A stretch of DNA of 64,000 nt from NCBI GenBank assembly GCA_905331295.1, contig CAJNYD010000550.1, forward strand, positions 112,606 through 176,605. The letters run 5' to 3'. This DNA is from Rotaria socialis. Taxonomy: Eukaryota. Below, piece by piece: positions 27,889 to 48,110 of the stretch (within the stretch, counting starts at the first letter, position 1; the number at the start of each line of letters is the position of its first letter). A program made the translations under genes and the position numbers. The notes under the pieces were generated by a model. That model did no database searches, was not told where the DNA came from, and saw only the letters and a program-made list of their open reading frames with translations.

Positions 27889-28237
27889 GCTAGAGACAAG
27901 AAATAATAAATAATAAATACAAGCGGGAATCTTTGATGAAAACATCACTGATGAAAAAATGTTGTCATATTTTTCTTTTCGAAAGAGTCCAGAAAAATAA
28001 TATTTATTCAACACTACAATATCGCTGTATTTACTTTGACTTTATAACCAAACATACCGTTTAACAAGGGTTGATAACTAGACATGAATATTTTCTCTAG
28101 CTTTTTACTTTTCTTTTTTTATTTCAAGGCTATGATAGTGAATTCTTATCTATTTCGTTTCTTATATAAGGATGCATTATTTCATAAATGGTCAATAAGA
28201 TTCTATCCGACTTGTTGTTATTTGTATTCAAAGACAA

Positions 28238-28939
28238 ATGCTCGCCATTCTTCTTCTCTGTATAGTTGGTTTTGTTGCCGCCCAACAACCTCAACCATGT
28301 GTAACACCACAACAATGGGAAGCTAACATTTTTGACTACAGTGAACCAAACAGATTCATGGTACGTGGACGATTGAGTTACGATGCTACCAATCACCGTG
28401 AACGTCTCCTTGAAGAAGTTGAAGTTGGAGATGACCGAGAATACTATGATGTCATTGCTTTGTTTGATTTACAAACCGAATTTATCTATAATTACAAAGC
28501 TCACAATTGTTCACGTCAACCATTAACTCGACCATGGCGCGATTTCGGTATTCGACCAGATGCTCGTTCATTCGGTGAAGCTTACATTGGTACATCGGCA
28601 TTACCAGGCTTAGGTTTATTAGTCACCATGTGGTAAATTTGCCTTTCTATGTTATTGTATCAAATTAGAATTGATTCTATTTCTAGGGGTACAAACCATA
28701 CAACACCCACAAACGACACTGTTCGCACATTCGGAACCTGGACATATCGAGCATGTCTTCCAGTCAGTTTTATTAGTCACAGCACTCAAATGGGTCGTAC
28801 TCAATCATCATTCTTCGATATTGTTGCTGGTATCAGTGATCCAAATGTATTCATTCCACGACCAGAATGTCTTACAGCCAAAGAATATGCTATGCGAGAC
28901 ACCCTTTTCGGTACACCCGCAAAAAAATTAAATAAATAA
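28238..28939 (+). CDS. EPDR1: Ependymin-related protein, copy 1 (2 exons)
   Basis: Signal peptide, PCVTPQQWE, YDATNHRER, NCSRQPLTRPWRDFGI, GEAYIG, CLPV and GISDPNVFIPRPEC, which form the EPDR cysteine/proline pattern. Intron at about 28633-28686. Confidence 0.93.
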
Positions 28940-30515
28940 ATAGACAACTTCTTTTTATTGACTATTTTAATGTAAACCTAGTTTTTAATCAATAAAATAA
29001 AACAAAGTTTCCATCTATGAAAAACATAATCTTTATCTTGCATGTAATTTTACAAGATGATAGCCATTCGAACAACAAGCACTTTTTGGATTCTCATTCT
29101 GCAGTCATTTTAAACTTAAGACAAGTATAGCGTAGAGAGAAAAAAAAGAATGGAAATTTGATTGCACGCTTTGCGTGTTAGTACTATTGTTATTGATATT
29201 TATAGAGTTCTTCACATATGTACATCATGCTAATCAAGATTAAATAATTTCACGGTAGACAGAATCCTTGAAAACAATATTTATTATTTTTGTTTTGTTA
29301 CTTTAATAGCACTAGCCAGACGCAAATCGAACTATTCGATTAGAAGGTCACACAATCTGCGAAATTGTTCGAGACGATTCTCGATTACTAAACACGAAAA
29401 TGATAACCTATTTTTGACTGTGTCATTCTTATAGTATGATTTTTAATTTTCCTTCGCATCATCTAAATGATTATCCAACACGATATAACTTTATTTACTT
29501 GTACTTTCATGCACTTCAGTAACACCCTTTACCAGTCTTGATAATACCTATGTGTCATCTTTTTTTTAAATTTATTTTCTTTCTAAGGTGATAATATATG
29601 TACTTTAGTATGTGGTCTGTTTGAGTCGATGCTAAATATGAAAAAGATATCTTTTTTATGCTTATCTATTCCTATGAAAAATAACCAAAGAAGATGTTTG
29701 TGGTTCTCTTGTGTTGTATGCTGGCTTGTTTACTTGTATTTTTTTTGTGGTAGGATAAAAAGCCACCCAGTACTTTTAGCTTTACTAAAACATGAAGGAC
29801 ATCTTATTAATATTCATATAGAATAACAATTTACGCCATTATCTAAATTAGGTTATTACATTGTTTAGGACAAAGAACTTTCTATTGCGTATTTTGAAGT
29901 CCTTCTTCAAGTCGAAATCAACCATAAAATTTCAGCTAGTGCTTTTCTATTAATATTACATGGTTCTAATAAATATATTCTTTAAAAGAAATTGTGTATA
30001 AACAAAAGCTGCTTTATGCAATGCGCTTTCTTCAGTTCACAAACAATCCACGCACATCTAAAGAACCTGATAAGCTTTTTCGTGGCTTGCCTTTTCTCAT
30101 GTTAATAAAAATCTTTCGATTGTTCCCTTAATTTGATGTTTATAGTTCGTTTTCTTGTAAATATAAGCATTCTGATGATATTTTCATGGATGATCAAGTA
30201 TCTCAGAACTCTTGTGATCATTTGTTTGATGGTGATTCAAATCTCACAAAAAAAGTATTTTGCACAATATTATTTTTTTTCCTTTAGTGGCCATCGTAAG
30301 TGTGTTAGTGTTAGATTAGACTGCGTTGATAAGAGAAGATACACTGCTGTTTGGTTTCTTTTTGTTGAAACAAGTTAACTGACAACAATGTTGACAATAC
30401 ACTCTGTTTTCAGTATTACATATATATATATATATATATAGGCAAGTCATTTCTCAAAATCTTCAACAGAATAGTTTAGTCTTCGTTTACTATTTCATTT
30501 TCAACAAACTAAATA

Positions 30516-31221
30516 ATGCTTGTTGCTCTCGTTCTTTGTTTGGTTGGCATTGTAGCTGCACAACGACCAATTCCATGCACGACTCCATCACAATGGGAAG
30601 GAAATGTTTATGATGTTAATGAAGAGCAAAAATTCCGATTAAACGGAAGATTAAGTTATGATGCAGTTTATCACCGTGAACGAATTGCTGAAGATATCGA
30701 AGAAGGTAGTCAAGATGATTTCTTTGAACGACTTGCTCTTTTTGAATCACAAATTGAATTTGTTTACAACTTCCGTGCTCGTAACTGTACTCGTCAACCA
30801 ATAACTCGACAATGGCGTGATTTTGGTATTCGTCCAACAGATACTTCATACGGTGAAGCTTACATTGGTTCATCTGCTTTTCCTGATACAGGTTTATTAG
30901 TCACAATCTGGTAAATAATCTTTCAATAATACTTCTCAATTAAATACTTCTTTGTTTTTTTTTATATCTAGGGGTGGTAATTTCACTTTACCAACAAATG
31001 ACACAATTGATTATACATCAACATGGACCTATCGAGGATGTATTCCAGTTACTCGAACAAGTTTCAGCCCTAAATTCGGTATTTCACACTTGTCATTCTA
31101 TGATGTAACAGCTGGTATCAGAGATCCAAATGTGTTTATTCCACGACGAGAATGTCTTTCAAGTGAAGAATGGGCTAGCCGATATACTCTCTTTGGCACA
31201 CCAGCAAAAAAGCACATTTAG
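30516..31221 (+). CDS. EPDR1: Ependymin-related protein, copy 2 (2 exons)
   Basis: Same motifs and intron position as copy 1. Confidence 0.93.
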
Positions 31222-31957
31222 AAAACATTTTTTAAATGAATTATATCATAATATTTCTTTTACAAAATAAAAATTTTGTGTAGTTTCGATAAACTAACGC
31301 ATACTAGAAACTGATATCATTTGTGTGATGTAATCAAAGGAATAAAAGCTAACTTTCGCTGAGGTTTCATCTTTCGAAAAACATCATGTGTGATGATTAT
31401 CAGCCAATTGATTGAAAGTGAATTTGAAAAATTTTGCACAATGCATTGAAATAATTCTTATGCAGATTTAGCATCTATATTAAACGAACAAAAACTAAAA
31501 GAAAATCAACAGAATAGAAAATTCAATAATCGAAGTTATATTATTTTGAAGTGAGAATCTGTTCTAACCATTTTGCAGTGTAATGATTTCTATCATCCGG
31601 TGTGACTAATTAATTCTTCAGTGGCAAAAATCTGTTTTGTGTTTTTTATCAAGATTTTGACGCAGAAGAAATTGTTTAAACATACTATTATTATTTTTAC
31701 TCTTTATTAGCCAATGTAAATGTGTTATCTTGCACAGAACTGTACTGATAACTGCAATCTACACTGACGCCCCGGGTAGTTTTTTTTGCTAGAATCAAGG
31801 TGAGTGACAACAATCTTGACTAAATTCTTCTCTCAACGTTGTATATATATATATAGAGAGAGAGAGACAGACAGAGAGAGACGAATCATTTTTCAGCATC
31901 TGCAACATAAGAGTTTATTCTTCGCTTACTACTATTTCATTTTCAGCAAACAAAAAA

Positions 31958-32654
31958 ATGTTGGTTGCTCTTGTTCTATGTTTGGTTGGTATTGCCGCTG
32001 CACAAGTACCCGCTCCATGTACATCCCCACCACAATGGGAAGGTCGTGTTTTCGAAATTAATGAAGAACAAAAGTTTTCATTAGGAGGCAGATTAAGTTA
32101 TGATTCACTGTATCACCGTGATCGCTTTGTTGAAGAAGTTGACGAAGGTGGTGAACAAAATGTTTATGATCGACTTTCCCTCTATGATCAAAAAATTGAA
32201 TATGTTTACAATTTCAAAGCCCGCAATTGTACACGACAACCATTAACTCGACCATGGCGTGATTTTGGTATTCGTCCAACAGATACTTCATACGGTGAAG
32301 CTTACATTGGTTCATCAGCTGCAGCTGATACAGGTTTATTAGTCACAATCTGGTAAATAATCTTTCAATAATACTTCCTAATCAAATATTTGTTGTATAT
32401 CTAGGGCTGGTAATTTCACTTTACCATCCAATGATACAATTGATTTCATTTCGACATGGACCTATCGAGGATGCATTCCAGTTTCTCGAACAAGCTTCAG
32501 TCCTAAATTTGGTGTATCCCATTTATCATTCTATGATGTAACAGCTGGTATTAGTGATCCAAATGTATTCATTCCACACCGAGAATGTCTTTCAAGTGAA
32601 GAATGGGCCGCGCGAAACACTCGCTTCGGTGTACCAAGCCTGAAAAAACATTAG
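31958..32654 (+). CDS. EPDR1: Ependymin-related protein, copy 3 (2 exons)
   Basis: Exon 1 is ORF 31958-32356. Exon 2 (about 32405-32654) encodes AGNFTLPSNDTIDFISTWTYRGCIPV...GISDPNVFIPHRECL...KKH*. Confidence 0.93.
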
Positions 32655-33772: not shown

Positions 33773-34441
33773 NNNNNNNNNNNNNNNNNNNNNNNNNNNN
33801 NNNNNNNNNNNNNNNNNNNNNNNNNNNNNNNNNNNNNNNNNNNNNNNNNNNNNNNNNNNNNNNNNNNNNNNNNNNNNNNNNNNNNNNNNNNNNNNNNNNN
33901 NNNNNNNNNNNNNNNNNNNNNNNNNNNNNNNNNNNNNNNNNNNNNNNNNNNNNNNNNNNNNNNNNNNNNNNNNNNNNNNNNNNNNNNNNNNNNNNNNNNN
34001 NNNNNNNNNNNNNNNNNNNNNNNNNNNNNNNNNNNNNNNNNNNNNNNNNNNNNNNNNNNNNNNNNNNNNNNNNNNNNNNNNNNNNNNNNNNNNNNNNNNN
34101 NNNNNNNNNNNNNNNNNNNNNNNNNNNNNNNNNNNNNNNNNNNNNNNNNNNNNNNNNNNNNNNNNNNNNNNNNNNNNNNNNNNNNNNNNNNNNNNNNNNN
34201 NNNNNNNNNNNNNNNNNNNNNNNNNNNNNNNNNNNNNNNNNNNNNNNNNNNNNNNNNNNNNNNNNNNNNNNNNNNNNNNNNNNNNNNNNNNNNNNNNNNN
34301 NNNNNNNNNNNNNNNNNNNNNNNNNNNNNNNNNNNNNNNNNNNNNNNNNNNNNNNNNNNNNNNNNNNNNNNNNNNNNNNNNNNNNNNNNNNNNNNNNNNN
34401 NNNNNNNNNNNNNNNNNNNNNNNNNNNNNNNNNNNNNNNNN
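33773..34441. other. Assembly gap (669 N)
   Basis: Run of N. Confidence 1.
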
Positions 34442-41083: not shown

Positions 41084-42343
41084 CTGAATCAACAATACTA
41101 CTACAGATAATTAACTATCCAACTGAGGAAATAACCTAGTAATTTTCATCATCTTCCTAGGTGCTGATAATCAATACTATTGTTTTATCTAGTTTTTATT
41201 GGACAAAGTGCCTGCCATAGTGGGCATGACTATGAGTCTCAGTGAATTTGATTAGTCTTATGCTTAGAATACATCTTGCATTTAAACAGTTAACCACAGT
41301 GGCAATAATACATATACGCCATCGTCACTATATCTGTGCATGGCACACCTGCAAATGCATTATCAAATATGATGCGCGTTGAGAGGGTGTGAATGAGATG
41401 CGGACAACTATCCCCATCAGATTTGATCGAAAGCAAAATTTTAGATTGGTGTAAATAGGAAAATACAAACGATGCTAATAGATTTTCAAACCAATTCGAA
41501 TACGAAATTTTCATGAGCCTACTTCAAATTGTACTATTACGTACTTATTCAGAGTTTAATATAAAAAATAGTAAAATTGCATCTATATATGAAAGAAATT
41601 ATTTGATTGATGATTGAACAACAAATTTGACTCAAATTGTTTAACTTTGAATTCCTATCGGTGATATCGGAAATCGCCCGGGAAAATTGAATTTAGAACT
41701 ATTCAGATGACACAAATTCGTAGCTATGGAAGAGAAAAAAAAATCGTTCTAGAAGCTATTGATGTTGGTCTAGTAGAGTTTATTTTGAATATTGTTCAGC
41801 TGAAGATTTATTAGGAATAAAGAACTAGGTATGACTTTGCAGTGTTCTATCCTATCGAGATTTTGGATCTCTAATAAAAAAAGGTATGCAATGAAATTTT
41901 GCAGTATGAGAAAAATAGTGACACAATAGACCAAATATTTGTCGTCAGACAGTTGCGATATGATGTCAAGCGTCAGAGTTTATCAATAATGGCTAATATA
42001 GATTAGAACAACTCACAGTTTTGTATTGAGTAAATACAATAGCGTCATTTCAGTTATACTAACATGAATTTCACAAAAGAGAAGAACCTTTTTTTTATCT
42101 TATCGCTTCTTCGCTTATTTCTTAATAGCCATTGAGAGGTCATTATTTGTCATAGTTTATCGAATAATTGAATACGGTGCTTCTTTCTCATTGTTATCTA
42201 TTTCAGTTATCTGAAGGCCACTATACTAGACATTGATAGCGATCTTTTCTATTACTATTACATGCATATAAAGATGCACACTTTCCTTGTCTGCATTTAA
42301 AATCTTTACAAGTCTTTTATTTCAATTCGAATAATACAAAATC

Positions 42344-43045
42344 ATGTTAACAATTCTGCTTCTCTGTTTGCTTGGTTTTGCTGCTGCACAACAACCACGT
42401 CCATGTACAACTCCACCACAATGGGAAGGGCGTATATACGACAGTAATGAAAAACAAAAAGCATCATTAAGAGGACGAATAAGCTATGATTCTGTTTATC
42501 ATCGTTCACGAATCGTCGACGATCTTCAAATCGGTACTGAAGAAATAGCGAATGATATTCTCTCCCTGTATGATGCTAGAATTGAATTCGATTATAATTT
42601 CAAAACTAAAAATTGTACACGCCGAGAAATAACTGAACCGTGGCGTGATTTTGGTATTCTTCCAGATGCAACTTCATATGGTGAAGCCTACATTGGTTCA
42701 TCTTCTCTTCCGGACACTGGTTTACTCATTACAATTTGGTTAGTACAAAGTCTTTTTCCATTGATTTGAAAAGTGCACTATTTTTTAAACATACGTAGGG
42801 GTGGCAATTTTACTTTATCAAACAATGAAACTATTCCATATATAGGAACATGGACATATCGAGGATGTCTTCCAGTTTCTCGAACAACTTACAGTGAAAA
42901 ATACGGCAATGAAGTGTTATCATTTTATGATCTCACTGTAGGTATTAGTGATCCAAACGTATTTATTCCTCGAAGCGAATGTCTTACAGAAAAAGAATAT
43001 GTCATGCGACATACTCTTTTTGGCACAACTACCAAGAAAAACTAA
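42344..43045 (+). CDS. EPDR1: Ependymin-related protein, copy 4 (2 exons)
   Basis: PCTTPPQWEGR, YDSVYHRSR, NCTR, WRDFGI, GEAYIG, CLPV and GISDPNVFIPRSEC; intron at about 42739-42798. Confidence 0.93.
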
Positions 43046-43885
43046 TCTATTATTATTTGTGTATGCCTGTTTATTTTTTTCATACTTTTCTTTTGTTTCT
43101 TAAAATAAAAAGATGAAAAGTAGTGTTTCGTAGTTCTTTTTTTTGAAAATGATCTAATTACCATGAATATTACGAAAAATCAATAATAATCTTTATAAGA
43201 ACCTTCAGAAATCATCCAATAGTTAGAAACATTAATCAGTAAGTTATTAAATACAAACATAGACATATTTTAAAGATCATACATTATAAAGTCAATCTAT
43301 TAAGAAATAATTTAGAGAGATAATAATAAAAGAGTATTCACATATTCGTTATGTATATTTTTTGCATGTCAAGGTTCGTGTTGATCTTTCTCTTCATTCA
43401 GTCAAACCTAGTTATACGAAAGAGATGAATTTATTGTCAGGAAAAGAAACTTTGTTTCAAAATCTAGTAAATTGATAAGATACGAAATATACAGTTGCTC
43501 CTTCTTTTTCTGTACGTCAATTAACTTAGAAGATTCATGACTGTCATTTGTTTCAAGATCTCATTAGAATTTAAGTAGGGTTCAATTTTCAGTGTTACAC
43601 TGAAATCGTTCTGTGATTGTCGCTGAGAAAGTGTCTTCCATAAGAACGAAAAATGAATAAAGTGTATAGTGAGATGCCAACGAATTCGAACTAAATGGAA
43701 TCGTTATATTATCAGAACGGACAACTTTTGACTAGTCTACAGGTAAAACTAAGAAGTCAACAGATAAAGAAATATTGACGATATTACATGTAGCGTCATC
43801 TATAAGCCTCCATTTTAGATTGGCAACTACTATGTATACCTTAAACACTTTTAATACAAAAAGAAAATTTTATTTCACTTTCATC

Positions 43886-43903
43886 ATGCACTATGGATTC
43901 TAA
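43886..43903 (+). promoter_or_regulatory. Short uORF (MHYGF*) overlapping the PSMG3 start codon out of frame
   Basis: ATG CAC TAT GGA TTC TAA; extendable in frame to an ATG at 43832. Whether it lies inside the mRNA is unknown. Confidence 0.45.
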
Positions 43904-44363
43904 ATTTCCACAAACAACAACTGTAAGAGTCATAAATTCCTAATATTATTTTGTATTTGGCATACTTCTAGGCACAAACAACACTGAGCAATCACATTAC
44001 TGATCTTGTTATAAGTAGTTTTGCTAATAAACTTTTTATATCGGTAACTCAATTTGGTAAAATCGGAAGTTTAGTAAGTCAAAAATAGAGAACCTAATCA
44101 TATTTATTTCCATATGAATTGTGTAGGTTCTCGTTCGTCGTGACGTTAATCTAGAAGAAGATTCAGCACCAGTCTATTCAGTAAAATCTCTTCTTGGTAA
44201 AGATCAAGCTGAATATCATATACTTGCTCGTCATCTTTACGAACGCTTACAATTAAAAAAACAACTTCTCTTTGGTTTTGCATTACATTCATTCGCTAAG
44301 AAAGATCTTGCAGAAATCGAAGAATTTATCTGTTCTAATATTAAAAAAGTAAATCAACAATGA
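43893..44363 (+). CDS. PSMG3: Proteasome assembly chaperone 3 (PAC3), 3 exons (43893-43922, 43972-44073, 44127-44363), 122 aa; absent from the ORF track
   Basis: Spliced translation MDSKFPQTTTAQTTLSNHITDLVISSFANKLFISVTQFGKIGSLVLV...VYSVKSLLGKDQAEYHILARHL...LLFGFALH...QQ*. It matches the PAC3 motifs VTQFGKxGxL and KxLLGxD. Confidence 0.9.
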
Positions 44364-44635
44364 ATAAAAGGTTTTTGAAAAATTTTCTTCCATACATCAC
44401 ATTAATGGGTGTAATCTATGTAACAATACGTAGTGCATCTTGGGTACGTTACGATCGTCGACGACAACAAGTTAAAACATATTCACGTGATGAAATTAAA
44501 GCTAAAGGTCTTGATTATGGTGAACCAACAACGTTAGAAGAAGAATATGAGCAAATGGTTAATCATCAAAATTTAGATGCATGGGAGCAAACACGAATCC
44601 AACGACCATGGCATGAAGAACCAGATAAACCCTAA
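44360..44635 (+). CDS. COX16: Cytochrome c oxidase assembly protein COX16, single exon
   Basis: N-terminal TM (FLPYITLMGVIYVTI), then VRYD, TLEEEYEQM and LDAWEQTRIQRPW, the COX16 signature; AATAAA at about 44686. Confidence 0.9.
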   Translation: MNKRFLKNFLPYITLMGVIYVTIRSASWVRYDRRRQQVKTYSRDEIKAKGLDYGEPTTLEEEYEQMVNHQNLDAWEQTRIQRPWHEEPDKP

Positions 44636-44754
44636 ATGTTTTCTTCCTTTTTTTTCTGTATTTTAAAATATCTATTAAAACTAACAATAAAAAGAATGAG
44701 TCGACGATCTAAGACTAGACAATAAAAAAGATTTTACTAATAAAAGTAATTCAT

Positions 44755-46084
44755 TCATTTATCACTGAGACCAGTTACACCAGGAAGATCTTTTCCTTCG
44801 AGAAGTTCAAGACTTGCACCACCTTAAAAGGAGTCGATAGATCAGTATAATACTCTCTAATTTAACTTACCTCCAGTTGATACATGATTCACTTGATCAG
44901 CAAAAACAAATTTAGCACTAGCAGTCGCTGTATCCTCTCCGCCAATAATTGTTATAGTATTTTGCTTTGTTTGTTTGACCACAGCTTTGAGTAATTCTTG
45001 TGTTCTATTAGCAAATTGATCTTGTTCAAAAACTTCCATAGAATCATTCCATACAATTGTTTTAGCTTTTTTAATACCAACTATAAATTGTTTTTATGGA
45101 TTCTTTGCCGATGTCAAGGCCAAGATAATCATCGTCGATACCATTTTCTTTTGTTGCTTTTTTCGTTTCTGTTGATTTAATATCATGAGCAACAATAAAA
45201 TCAACTAGCAAATAGATTTCAACATTTTTTGTTTTAGCTTTATCGAGAATCTTTTGAAATCGATTTCGATCCTTGTGAATCAAATAAAGATTTAACAATT
45301 TTCATATTCTCTTTTTCTTCGAGGAATTTAATTTTAAATATAAATATATATAAGAAATTCAAGAACAAACCAAGAATAGCAAGAAAACGTCGTTCAGGAT
45401 TTTCAAGTACTAGACCAAAATAATCAAGCTCTTTTTTCATTAAATAACCGGCTGCACGTTGATCAAGTTTAACTCCGACAATTGAACTGTGAGCACAAAG
45501 CTGCTCCAAAAGCATCATGAATATCTATAGGGAAAAAAACCAATCGGATCGTATTCATGTAAATATAAGACAAGAAAAAACTTACAAACATCACCAAATT
45601 TTGATAGACTAGCTCGAAATTTATTGGTAGCATCTTTGCCAGCTTTTGTTTTATTGCCTTGTTTATCTTCAACAGAACCTTCTTCAAGATGAAATTAGAG
45701 ATTTTCAAGTATAATAATTTGTCCATTATCGGATTCACCAACGACACGTTCAACTTCTTCACCAACACAATCATTCAGAAACGTTACATATTTGCCAAGT
45801 AATCTTTTTAATTCTTCAGCAACGGGCTTTAAACTTTCTTTTTCAGCGCGTTTACCATCAGGTCGACCCAAATGAGACATAAGAATAATTGCTTTTGCAT
45901 CTTTATCAAGAGCATATTTTATTGTTGGTAATGCACCTTCAAAATGTGTTGCTTATCTTTTACTTGGCCATGATCCAATGAAACATTGAAATCAACACGC
46001 ATTAAAACTCGTTTACCTTTTAGGCCGAGATCTCCAATAATTAATTTATTGCTAATACTACCTTTACTAGGTTGTAGATACCAT
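44755..46084 (-). pseudogene. PGK: Phosphoglycerate kinase pseudogene, introns retained
   Basis: [59 protein letters not shown]. There is a stop in ENL*FH (about 45695), frameshifts near 46070, 45942 and 45500, and the AKVxDK...GGGMA block is missing. Confidence 0.88.
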
Positions 46085-46536
46085 TGAGAGAATGTTTTTT
46101 TCTAGGGCGATTATTATTGAAATAAACCAAAAACCCGAAAGAAAGAACCGATACTCAAACCATGCTTTTATGTTTCAAAGAATAATTAATACGGCAAGAA
46201 AAAAAAATGCAATTCTAGAGCGGCTATGCAGACAGAACGAACAACAATGTTGGTCGAGAACGATAAACTAGGAGGCAAGTGTTATTGTTACCAACATCGT
46301 AATGGTAAAATTGGCAACACATTGGATTTTGTTACTATTTGCTTTTTGATTAAGTGTACACAATGAAAGAAAGAAAAAACGCTAATGCTATACTTGTATT
46401 TAAGTATGATGAAAGAAAAAGTCGTTTTTTATCGAAGAAAAAACCATGAGAAAAACAACTAATTTCTAAAGGAATCAAAAGTTTAAAGTATTTTCCATTG
46501 TTTTTTGTTTTGTTTCAGTAGTTCATCATATTGATC

Positions 46537-48110
46537 ATGGCTGCTACGGGTTTTGACAGAATGCCGGGACAAGGTTTCTCATCGAGAACAGCCAGGTAGA
46601 AGATATTTTCGTTAATTAAATTTTCATTTCTTTTTTGATTATTATTAAATATTTAGATTCCAATCACTTGGTTTACATCCAGAATTATTAACTGGGAGTC
46701 AACATCAAAGTACGCCTAATGTTGCACCAGGCTCTTATGATCTAATGCAATATGGTGACTTTAGTGAACAAACAATTCAAAAACGTATGGAAGGTCCCAA
46801 CTGGCAACAAGCATTATATACAGAACAGTTAGCTAAATTTCCTCATCCGAATTTTCGAGAAACATATGAAAAACGATTAGAAGATCAAAAACGTCTTGGT
46901 CCTGGTACGTATCCGATAAATGATTTTATAACAGAAGCTGACCGACGGCCACGTTGTGCACGAGGTGCACTTGATCAACTTTCACCACGATTTCCCAAAG
47001 AACAATTAGTATGAGAAAGAAAAAAAAGCTCATTTTGCTTTTCATTTCTACAGTGTTAATACTTTTTCTTTATTAATAGGATAAAGCACCTCCGCCAGGT
47101 GCCTACGGCATTCCTGATGAAAAAATTCACCGAAAACGATGGGAACAAGGTAGTAATATTCCATCACTTGATTGGAATCAAGGCCCAAGAACATTACCAC
47201 TTCAAGTACTGCAAAAACATCGACTTTTTGCTTTTCTTTCTGATCAATACATTTTTTTAGGGTTCAAAAATCGGCCCAGGAACATATAATATAAAAAATT
47301 CAATAGATGAATTAATTAATAAACGTGTCAGTGAAAAAGGTCCATATCAAATATTTTCATTAGATCGTTCAGCACCAATAGCAACTGGACATTATGCTGT
47401 TTTGGATACATGGGATTTGTCACCTGATTTTCCATCAAAAGATTATCCAGAATCAACATCGATCACACATGAATTAACAAAAAGTAAACATGGAACATTT
47501 AGTAAATTGAATAGATTTCAAAAGAAACCTACAAATCGATTAGCTATCGAACATCCAGGTGGGTACGTAGAGAAAATAAAGTAACTAAATTATTCTTTTG
47601 ATTTTTGTTTCTTAAACAAAAAAACAGGTCTTGAACCTAAAAATGTTGATTTCCCTGGACCGGGCGCATATGTCGTAACTCGACCATGGGAAAAACATGA
47701 TTATCACGCGAAAAAAGTTGGATTCAATTCATCATCAACAAGAAACGATAATCGTTCATTTACTAGTACAGGTGGTCATAATGTATGTTATTTATTAATA
47801 TTTTTTTTTCCATTTATCCATCACTTTGTATCTTTTTCATAGACGGTCGGTGTTGGTCGATATAATATTGTATCGCCCGTTCGAGATGAAACTATAGCTG
47901 ATAAACGTAAACGACCTAAACGACGAAATATTGCTTTTTCTTCCACAACATCCCGTTTTGCAACTGTCGATGGTGAATCGTTATTGAAGTAAGTCGCAAT
48001 CTAAAAACCAAAGTGATACAATGCATCTTGTATATTTTAGTGAACGTTTGAAACCACATAATCTTCGCCTGGAACAACGACAACAGTTATTCCTCAAAGG
48101 TCATATATAA
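46537..48110 (+). CDS. LEXM: LEXM/C1orf177 (CIMAP2)-like ciliary microtubule-associated protein with PGPGxY (SHIPPO-type) repeats, 7 exons
   Basis: VAPGSY, LGPGTY, PPPGAYG, IGPGTYNIK, GPYQIFSLDRS, KHGTFSKL, FPGPGAY, VGVGRY and NERLKP; all introns are GT-AG. Confidence 0.82.

Follow-up and report, generated by a model that had tools for sequence, protein, structure and literature searches.

The locus raises the question of how ribosomes would reach a second gene whose start codon lies within the end of the first. In the window, by which we mean the whole 64,000-nucleotide stretch of Rotaria socialis DNA that was analyzed, the PSMG3 (PAC3) and COX16 genes lie in tandem on the + strand. The spliced PSMG3 coding sequence comprises 369 nt (122 aa) in three exons. 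Exon 1 (43893-43922) opens with a start codon in strong context, and its joint to exon 2 (43922-43972) is present in RNA contigs. Exon 2 (43972-44073) includes codon 18 (43993-43995), and exon 3 (44127-44363) carries the Pfam PAC3 match (E 1.2e-10) together with Asp50 (44142-44144) and Tyr82 (44238-44240). Both introns are short and of the GT..AG type; intron 1 (43923-43971, 49 nt) is absent from contigs of runs X1, X2 and X4, and intron 2 (44074-44126, 53 nt) from those of X1, X2, X3, X4 and X6. Compared by eye, the spliced product is identical letter for letter to the R. socialis protein P0049.

COX16 (44360-44635, + strand) is intronless and encodes 91 aa in the next frame, with a Pfam COX16 match of E 2.8e-12 and an N-terminus that aligns with relatives of 91-92 aa. 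Its start codon and the PSMG3 stop codon share the four letters ATGA (44360-44363). The 3' untranslated region shared by the two genes spans 44636-44723, where contigs of three runs end at 44720-44723, a weak hint of the mRNA 3' end, and AATAAA occurs at 44686 and 44721. Near relatives of the PSMG3 product belong to Rotaria and Adineta. Many public COX16 models begin at Met16 (75-76 aa) and are thus 15 residues short, and the R. socialis model P0051 fuses PSMG3 to COX16; in both cases the overlap seems to have affected the annotation. A true PSMG3-COX16 fusion protein was rejected, as such a joint is absent from the RNA contigs of eight runs. Separately, one low-depth X4 contig skips 63 nt within COX16 (44369-44433; GT..AG, in frame), which would delete about 21 codons, a hydrophobic stretch included.

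Contigs from 8 of 17 listed runs were compared with the window, where X4 proved fragmentary and X5 had no matching contig. X6 is the run recorded as RNA; for the others with spliced joints, an RNA origin follows from the introns having been joined out. Spliced contigs bridge the PSMG3/COX16 junction, with at least 31 letters on each side, in six of the eight runs (X1, X2, X3, X6, X7 and X9), which come from five studies. Near-full-unit contigs with both introns removed extend over 43890-44723 in X1 and 43885-44720 in X2, while the X3 and X6 contigs start at the exon 2 boundary. A contig cannot establish that its letters come from one molecule or where transcription starts, and contigs drop rare forms; their depths along the unit were not counted as evidence. 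No spliced leader joined upstream of COX16 was listed among the loose ends of contigs from the eight runs, within that same limit on rare forms. Early polyadenylation after the PSMG3 stop was considered and set aside: the window has an AATAAA past the stop, yet in the relatives this signal has no fixed place, and the contigs run through. It is likely that PSMG3 and COX16 share one mRNA.

A metagenome scan returned at least six related loci. The counts given here use five of them (L001-L005) plus the window, with L006 excluded since it comes without upstream DNA. Among the matches listed, PSMG3 lies directly 5' of COX16 and has the same two introns in 5/5 loci with upstream DNA. The overlap is kept in all six loci, even where the junction is shifted by one codon; it takes the form ATGA in the window and four of the five related loci, and TAATG in L003. 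All compared loci are bdelloid and are kin, with third-position differences of 8-33%, so that counts of conservation among them are not independent. Near-adjacent accession numbers and identical contig sizes indirectly suggest that the linkage also exists in R. magnacalcarata, A. ricciae and A. steineri. Scanning of genome contigs gave a single chance bacterial match (L007), and scanning of viral contigs gave no match.

The path between the two start codons avoids ATG in all frames. The first-pass annotation had claimed that the spliced 369-nt sequence contains no ATG besides its own start and that of COX16, and this is exact: ATG occurs at nt 1 and once more at nt 366, where COX16 starts (44360). 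The sole ATG between both starts on the genomic sequence, at 44114, sits in intron 2 as that annotation had it, and this intron is missing from the RNA contigs, such that the first ATG encountered past the PSMG3 start in spliced RNA is that of COX16. Its expectation of several ATGs by chance likewise holds, where base composition predicts 5.9 in the PSMG3 coding sequence of the window (probability of none, 0.003) and 373 of 100,000 codon shuffles lack one. The check that it proposed, a count in linked orthologs, returned zero internal exonic ATGs in 6/6 loci among the matches listed, whereas the introns of the six loci together hold seven ATGs and COX16 holds 7-12 in each. With the protein preserved, synonymous resampling puts the probability of none at 0.011 in the window and at 0.00005-0.00025 in the five related loci. 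None of 163 control stretches (overlapping, 362 nt each, drawn from 19 ORFs hand-picked out of the 39 long ORFs in the window) was free of ATG.

The protein itself contributes little to this argument. Internal Met is absent from all 14 full-length bdelloid PAC3 proteins checked, but 30 of 139 non-bdelloid PAC3 proteins (the 100-175 aa subset of 149 non-query matches) also lack it; because these relatives share the trait, the missing Met carries little weight and was dropped as evidence for selection. At the TQFGK-x position, too, Ile is the most frequent residue elsewhere.

Synonymous codon choice is decisive. An out-of-frame ATG forms wherever a Tyr, His, Asn or Asp codon (NAY) that ends in T meets a following G. 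NAY codons of PSMG3 that precede G are C-ending in 22/22 cells, distributed over four sites (codons 18, 50, 54 and 82), while at other places in the gene they are T-ending in 101 of 105. Before G, T-ending codons fill 34/36 cells in COX16 and 170/195 in the control ORFs, counts that rule out a CpG-type bias behind the C-ending codons. Since cells share ancestry, the fair tally is by site, and this stands at 4/4 versus 0/19, or about 1 in 8855 as worked by hand. In the five related loci, the His at codon 18 ends in C and averts an ATG ahead of Val; Asp50 and Tyr82 are likewise C-ending ahead of G. The protected sites, codons 18 to 82, are located 120-310 nt from the PSMG3 stop and span the gene, which argues that the constraint acts on the whole path. 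Exon-3 variants of other strains, inspected by eye in the RNA contigs, create no ATG. This pattern of codon use shows that the AUG-free PSMG3 path is selected and not a product of chance. The broader proposal of the first-pass annotation, in which selection keeps the path clear for subunits scanning to COX16, is upheld as to selection (0/6 loci with an ATG, 4/4 sites). Plain leaky scanning, one of the routes it named, fits less well because the PSMG3 start is strong in 6/6 loci and a conserved upstream ORF (uORF) overlaps it.

This uORF begins with an ATG at 43886, which precedes the coding sequence by 7 nt and which the first-pass annotation had overlooked. It opens a 5-codon frame (MHYGF-stop, 43886-43903, + strand) that is out of frame with PSMG3 and stops 11 nt inside it. 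Start, frame, length and stop position are alike in the window and L001-L005, and the consensus reads M-[H/Y/C]-Y-G-[F/S]-stop with a second codon of CAC, TAC or TGT, never a stop. The uORF stop and the COX16 AUG are 351-354 nt apart. Outside the uATG, the stretch from -29 to -1 has 26 columns, of which only three, all T, show no variation across the six loci. The base at -3 of the uATG is a purine in 6/6 loci, alternating between A and G. The PSMG3 start combines a -3 purine with a G at +4 in all six; six control starts from the window, themselves putative, likewise have a -3 purine, and the COX16 start has a pyrimidine there in 4/6 loci. Other upstream ATGs are not conserved, occurring at -61 in the window (in the uORF frame) and at -17 and -96 in L002. 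P0068, a more distant bdelloid-like protein, is modeled with Leu-Phe ahead of its Met, which implies, from protein letters only, a weak start and no ATG at -7.

Conservation of the uATG could in part be a promoter matter. A conserved C-purine at -11/-10 could serve as the transcription start, which would place the uAUG 3 nt from the cap. Further upstream, a block at 43790-43827 (+ strand) aligns in the window and L002-L005 with diverging flanks, lies 60-95 nt before the uATG and is a likely set of promoter elements. Among them are a CCAAT-like pentamer in reverse orientation and, at some of the loci, a TATA-like hexamer; in its first part the block looks like a reverse-strand CTCF or YY1 site.

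In the route that we infer for COX16, a single capped mRNA would begin upstream of 43886 and present scanning subunits with two competing AUGs, 7 nt apart and each with a -3 purine. Initiation at the second would yield PSMG3. Initiation at the first would lead to termination 11 nt beyond the PSMG3 start with the 40S subunit retained on the mRNA, which would then rescan the 351-354 nt, pick up initiator tRNA again and initiate at COX16 as the first AUG met. Leakage past both AUGs would probably add to this flow. Close-set AUGs are described as competing (PMC9743702, PMC8593136), and in the available text of PMC9743702 a uAUG at -7 in yeast cut downstream output by only about 42%, so both proteins would be made. 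Routes to a second ORF can also coexist (PMC10742948). Several points count against the uORF route: X2 supplies the sole contig that takes in the uATG, with a single base ahead of it, conservation of the uATG may partly reflect the promoter, the conserved start-stop overlap is superfluous to the route, COX16 has a -3 pyrimidine in 4/6 loci, and P0068 appears to lack the -7 ATG. On balance, we give an even chance to the claim that COX16 is made mainly by ribosomes that take the uORF and then rescan an AUG-free PSMG3. The broader claim of a scanning path to COX16, whether by uORF bypass or plain leak, is quite probable, since the two share that path.

Should subunits simply miss both AUGs of one mRNA with a very short leader, they would reach COX16 by plain leaky scanning, and the uATG would be a promoter-start element or a damper of PSMG3 only. 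The AUG-free path is explained equally well in this way. Short leaders are described as favoring leakage (PMC11892635, PMC8593136), RNA contigs, one of them at a depth of 130, start at -3 and -8 relative to the PSMG3 ATG, a weak hint of such a leader, and the weak start implied by P0068 would suit leakage in one lineage. The PSMG3 context is nonetheless strong in 6/6 loci, which differs from the algal bicistrons discussed below, and a conserved uAUG with a -3 purine would form a second trap unless reinitiation follows. We consider this explanation possible but unlikely.

COX16 could alternatively have its own mRNA with a leader of PSMG3 exons, starting just past the PSMG3 ATG or carrying a spliced leader on exon 2, where AUG avoidance would amount to ordinary leader cleaning. 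All four protected sites do fall within exons 2-3, the X3 and X6 contigs start at the exon 2 boundary, and spliced-leader trans-splicing occurs in rotifers (PMC7986045, PMC12460157). Yet no loose 5' ends at exons 2 and 3 are listed, bar exon-2 letters, an acceptor-like site in exon 3 is found in 2/6 loci and is thus unconserved, and the conserved uORF would be left without explanation. A separate mRNA is accordingly doubtful to us.

A further alternative is that ribosomes which complete PSMG3 reinitiate at the COX16 AUG that overlaps its stop, a route used by caliciviruses and influenza B segment 7. The overlap is present in 6/6 loci, and ATGA and TAATG are both known forms according to PMC10275272. 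In each of the six loci, folding of the final 104 nt is slightly favored over that of shuffled versions (z -0.3 to -2.5), but the consensus fold shows a two-sided change in 1 of 31 pairs with a positive covariation term, leaving a structure unsupported. The UGGGA core of the ribosome-binding site upstream of termination (TURBS), as given in PMC5972666, is found in 0/6 coding sequences, and AUG avoidance distant from the stop would be superfluous. We judge stop-start reinitiation improbable. Finally, that independent genes abut through chance and genome compaction with AUG under no selection is scarcely credible and already largely refuted, for although internal Met is often absent in the family (30/139) and the loci share ancestry, rare C-ending codons occur exactly at the four AUG-prone sites, ATGs are tolerated in the introns and COX16, and the poly(A) signal after the PSMG3 stop has no fixed place.

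The nearest known relative of the proposed uORF bypass is the KSHV ORF35-ORF36 mRNA, in which uORF2 lies across the strong start of ORF35 and ORF36 is reached after a rescan of 332 nt, as demonstrated by mutation (PMC3561293); by the account in that source, HBV C0 was the sole earlier case as of 2013. Both systems place a short out-of-frame uORF across a strong first start and have overlapping ORFs; the stretch rescanned is 332 nt there and would be 351-354 nt here. The KSHV case is viral and mutation-tested and uses two uORFs of 9 and 11 codons (PMC3561293), whereas the rotifer candidate is a cellular, spliced housekeeping pair with one 5-codon uORF at -7. An AUG-poor first ORF is a published signature of scanning bicistrons in green algae and, as cited there, in Drosophila stoned/Snapin (PMC11892635), with FlyBase holding 159 dicistronic pairs (PMC4528330). 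Like the rotifer pair, the algal and fly bicistrons have a short AUG-depleted first ORF, and scanning gives access to their downstream ORF, as is proposed here. Their first start is weak, with plain leakage and spaced ORFs (PMC11892635); here, in contrast, the first start is strong in 6/6 loci, a uORF overlaps it and the two ORFs overlap.

Human POLG/POLGARF, ATF4 and C/EBP provide cellular mRNAs in which a short uORF redirects ribosomes past the first start to a later one (PMC10742948). POLGARF begins at a CUG that closely follows the uORF stop, in a frame other than that of POLG, which it overlaps, and C/EBP yields isoforms (PMC10742948), which differs from the rotifer arrangement of two unrelated full tandem proteins, both with AUG starts, and a uORF stop beyond the first start. 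The pair also shares with the TURBS elements of caliciviruses and influenza B an AUGA or UAAUG overlap (PMC10275272, PMC5972666), but the UGGGA core and covarying structure were not found in the rotifer loci and AUG is avoided across the whole first ORF. With spliced-leader operons it shares tightly packed, co-oriented genes in a trans-splicing phylum (PMC7986045, PMC12460157), yet intergenic space for an acceptor is absent and RNA contigs cross the junction. Within titles and the opening parts of abstracts, mostly of open-access papers, we found no earlier report of the PSMG3-COX16 pair, joint mentions being confined to cancer-signature literature. Under the same limits, no rotifer bicistron was found, nor any tandem pair of cellular genes laid out in exactly this way.

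Several neighboring features were also recorded. A PGK-like gene (44760-46100, - strand) converges on COX16 and occupies the same place in L001, L003, L005 and L006; the window copy looks broken by a shift of reading frame near 45950 and by a stop codon in frame near 45695. Upstream, at least four ependymin-like genes lie on the + strand at 28199-32353 and 42335-43045, the last recognized by Pfam and the others by sequence likeness, and copies also precede PSMG3 in L005 (two) and L004 (one). An assembly gap of 669 N spans 33773-34441. Downstream, a multi-exon gene at 46649-47900 (+ strand) has weak SHIPPO-repeat matches under the Pfam cut-off and is syntenic in L005.

Polycistronic mRNAs are unreported in rotifers according to a 2021 paper (PMC7986045). 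Should it be borne out, the proposed uORF bypass would stand as a naturally occurring and conserved example, in a cellular mRNA, of a design whose tests come mainly from viruses. Leakage and reinitiation could be told apart through three point changes in a 750-nt unit, and many COX16 annotations are correctable for the 15 residues lost by Met16 starts. C-ending Tyr, His, Asn and Asp codons before G in an AT-rich genome offer a screen for further bdelloid bicistrons. More tentatively, and with somewhat less than an even chance of being right, the 18-nt uORF may act as a ribosome splitter in a cellular animal mRNA that sets the PSMG3:COX16 ratio, with a signature that could reveal a wider class. 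One mRNA would then tune the ratio of proteasome to cytochrome c oxidase assembly factors, and because initiator-tRNA supply would govern reinitiation, stress such as desiccation could shift that ratio.
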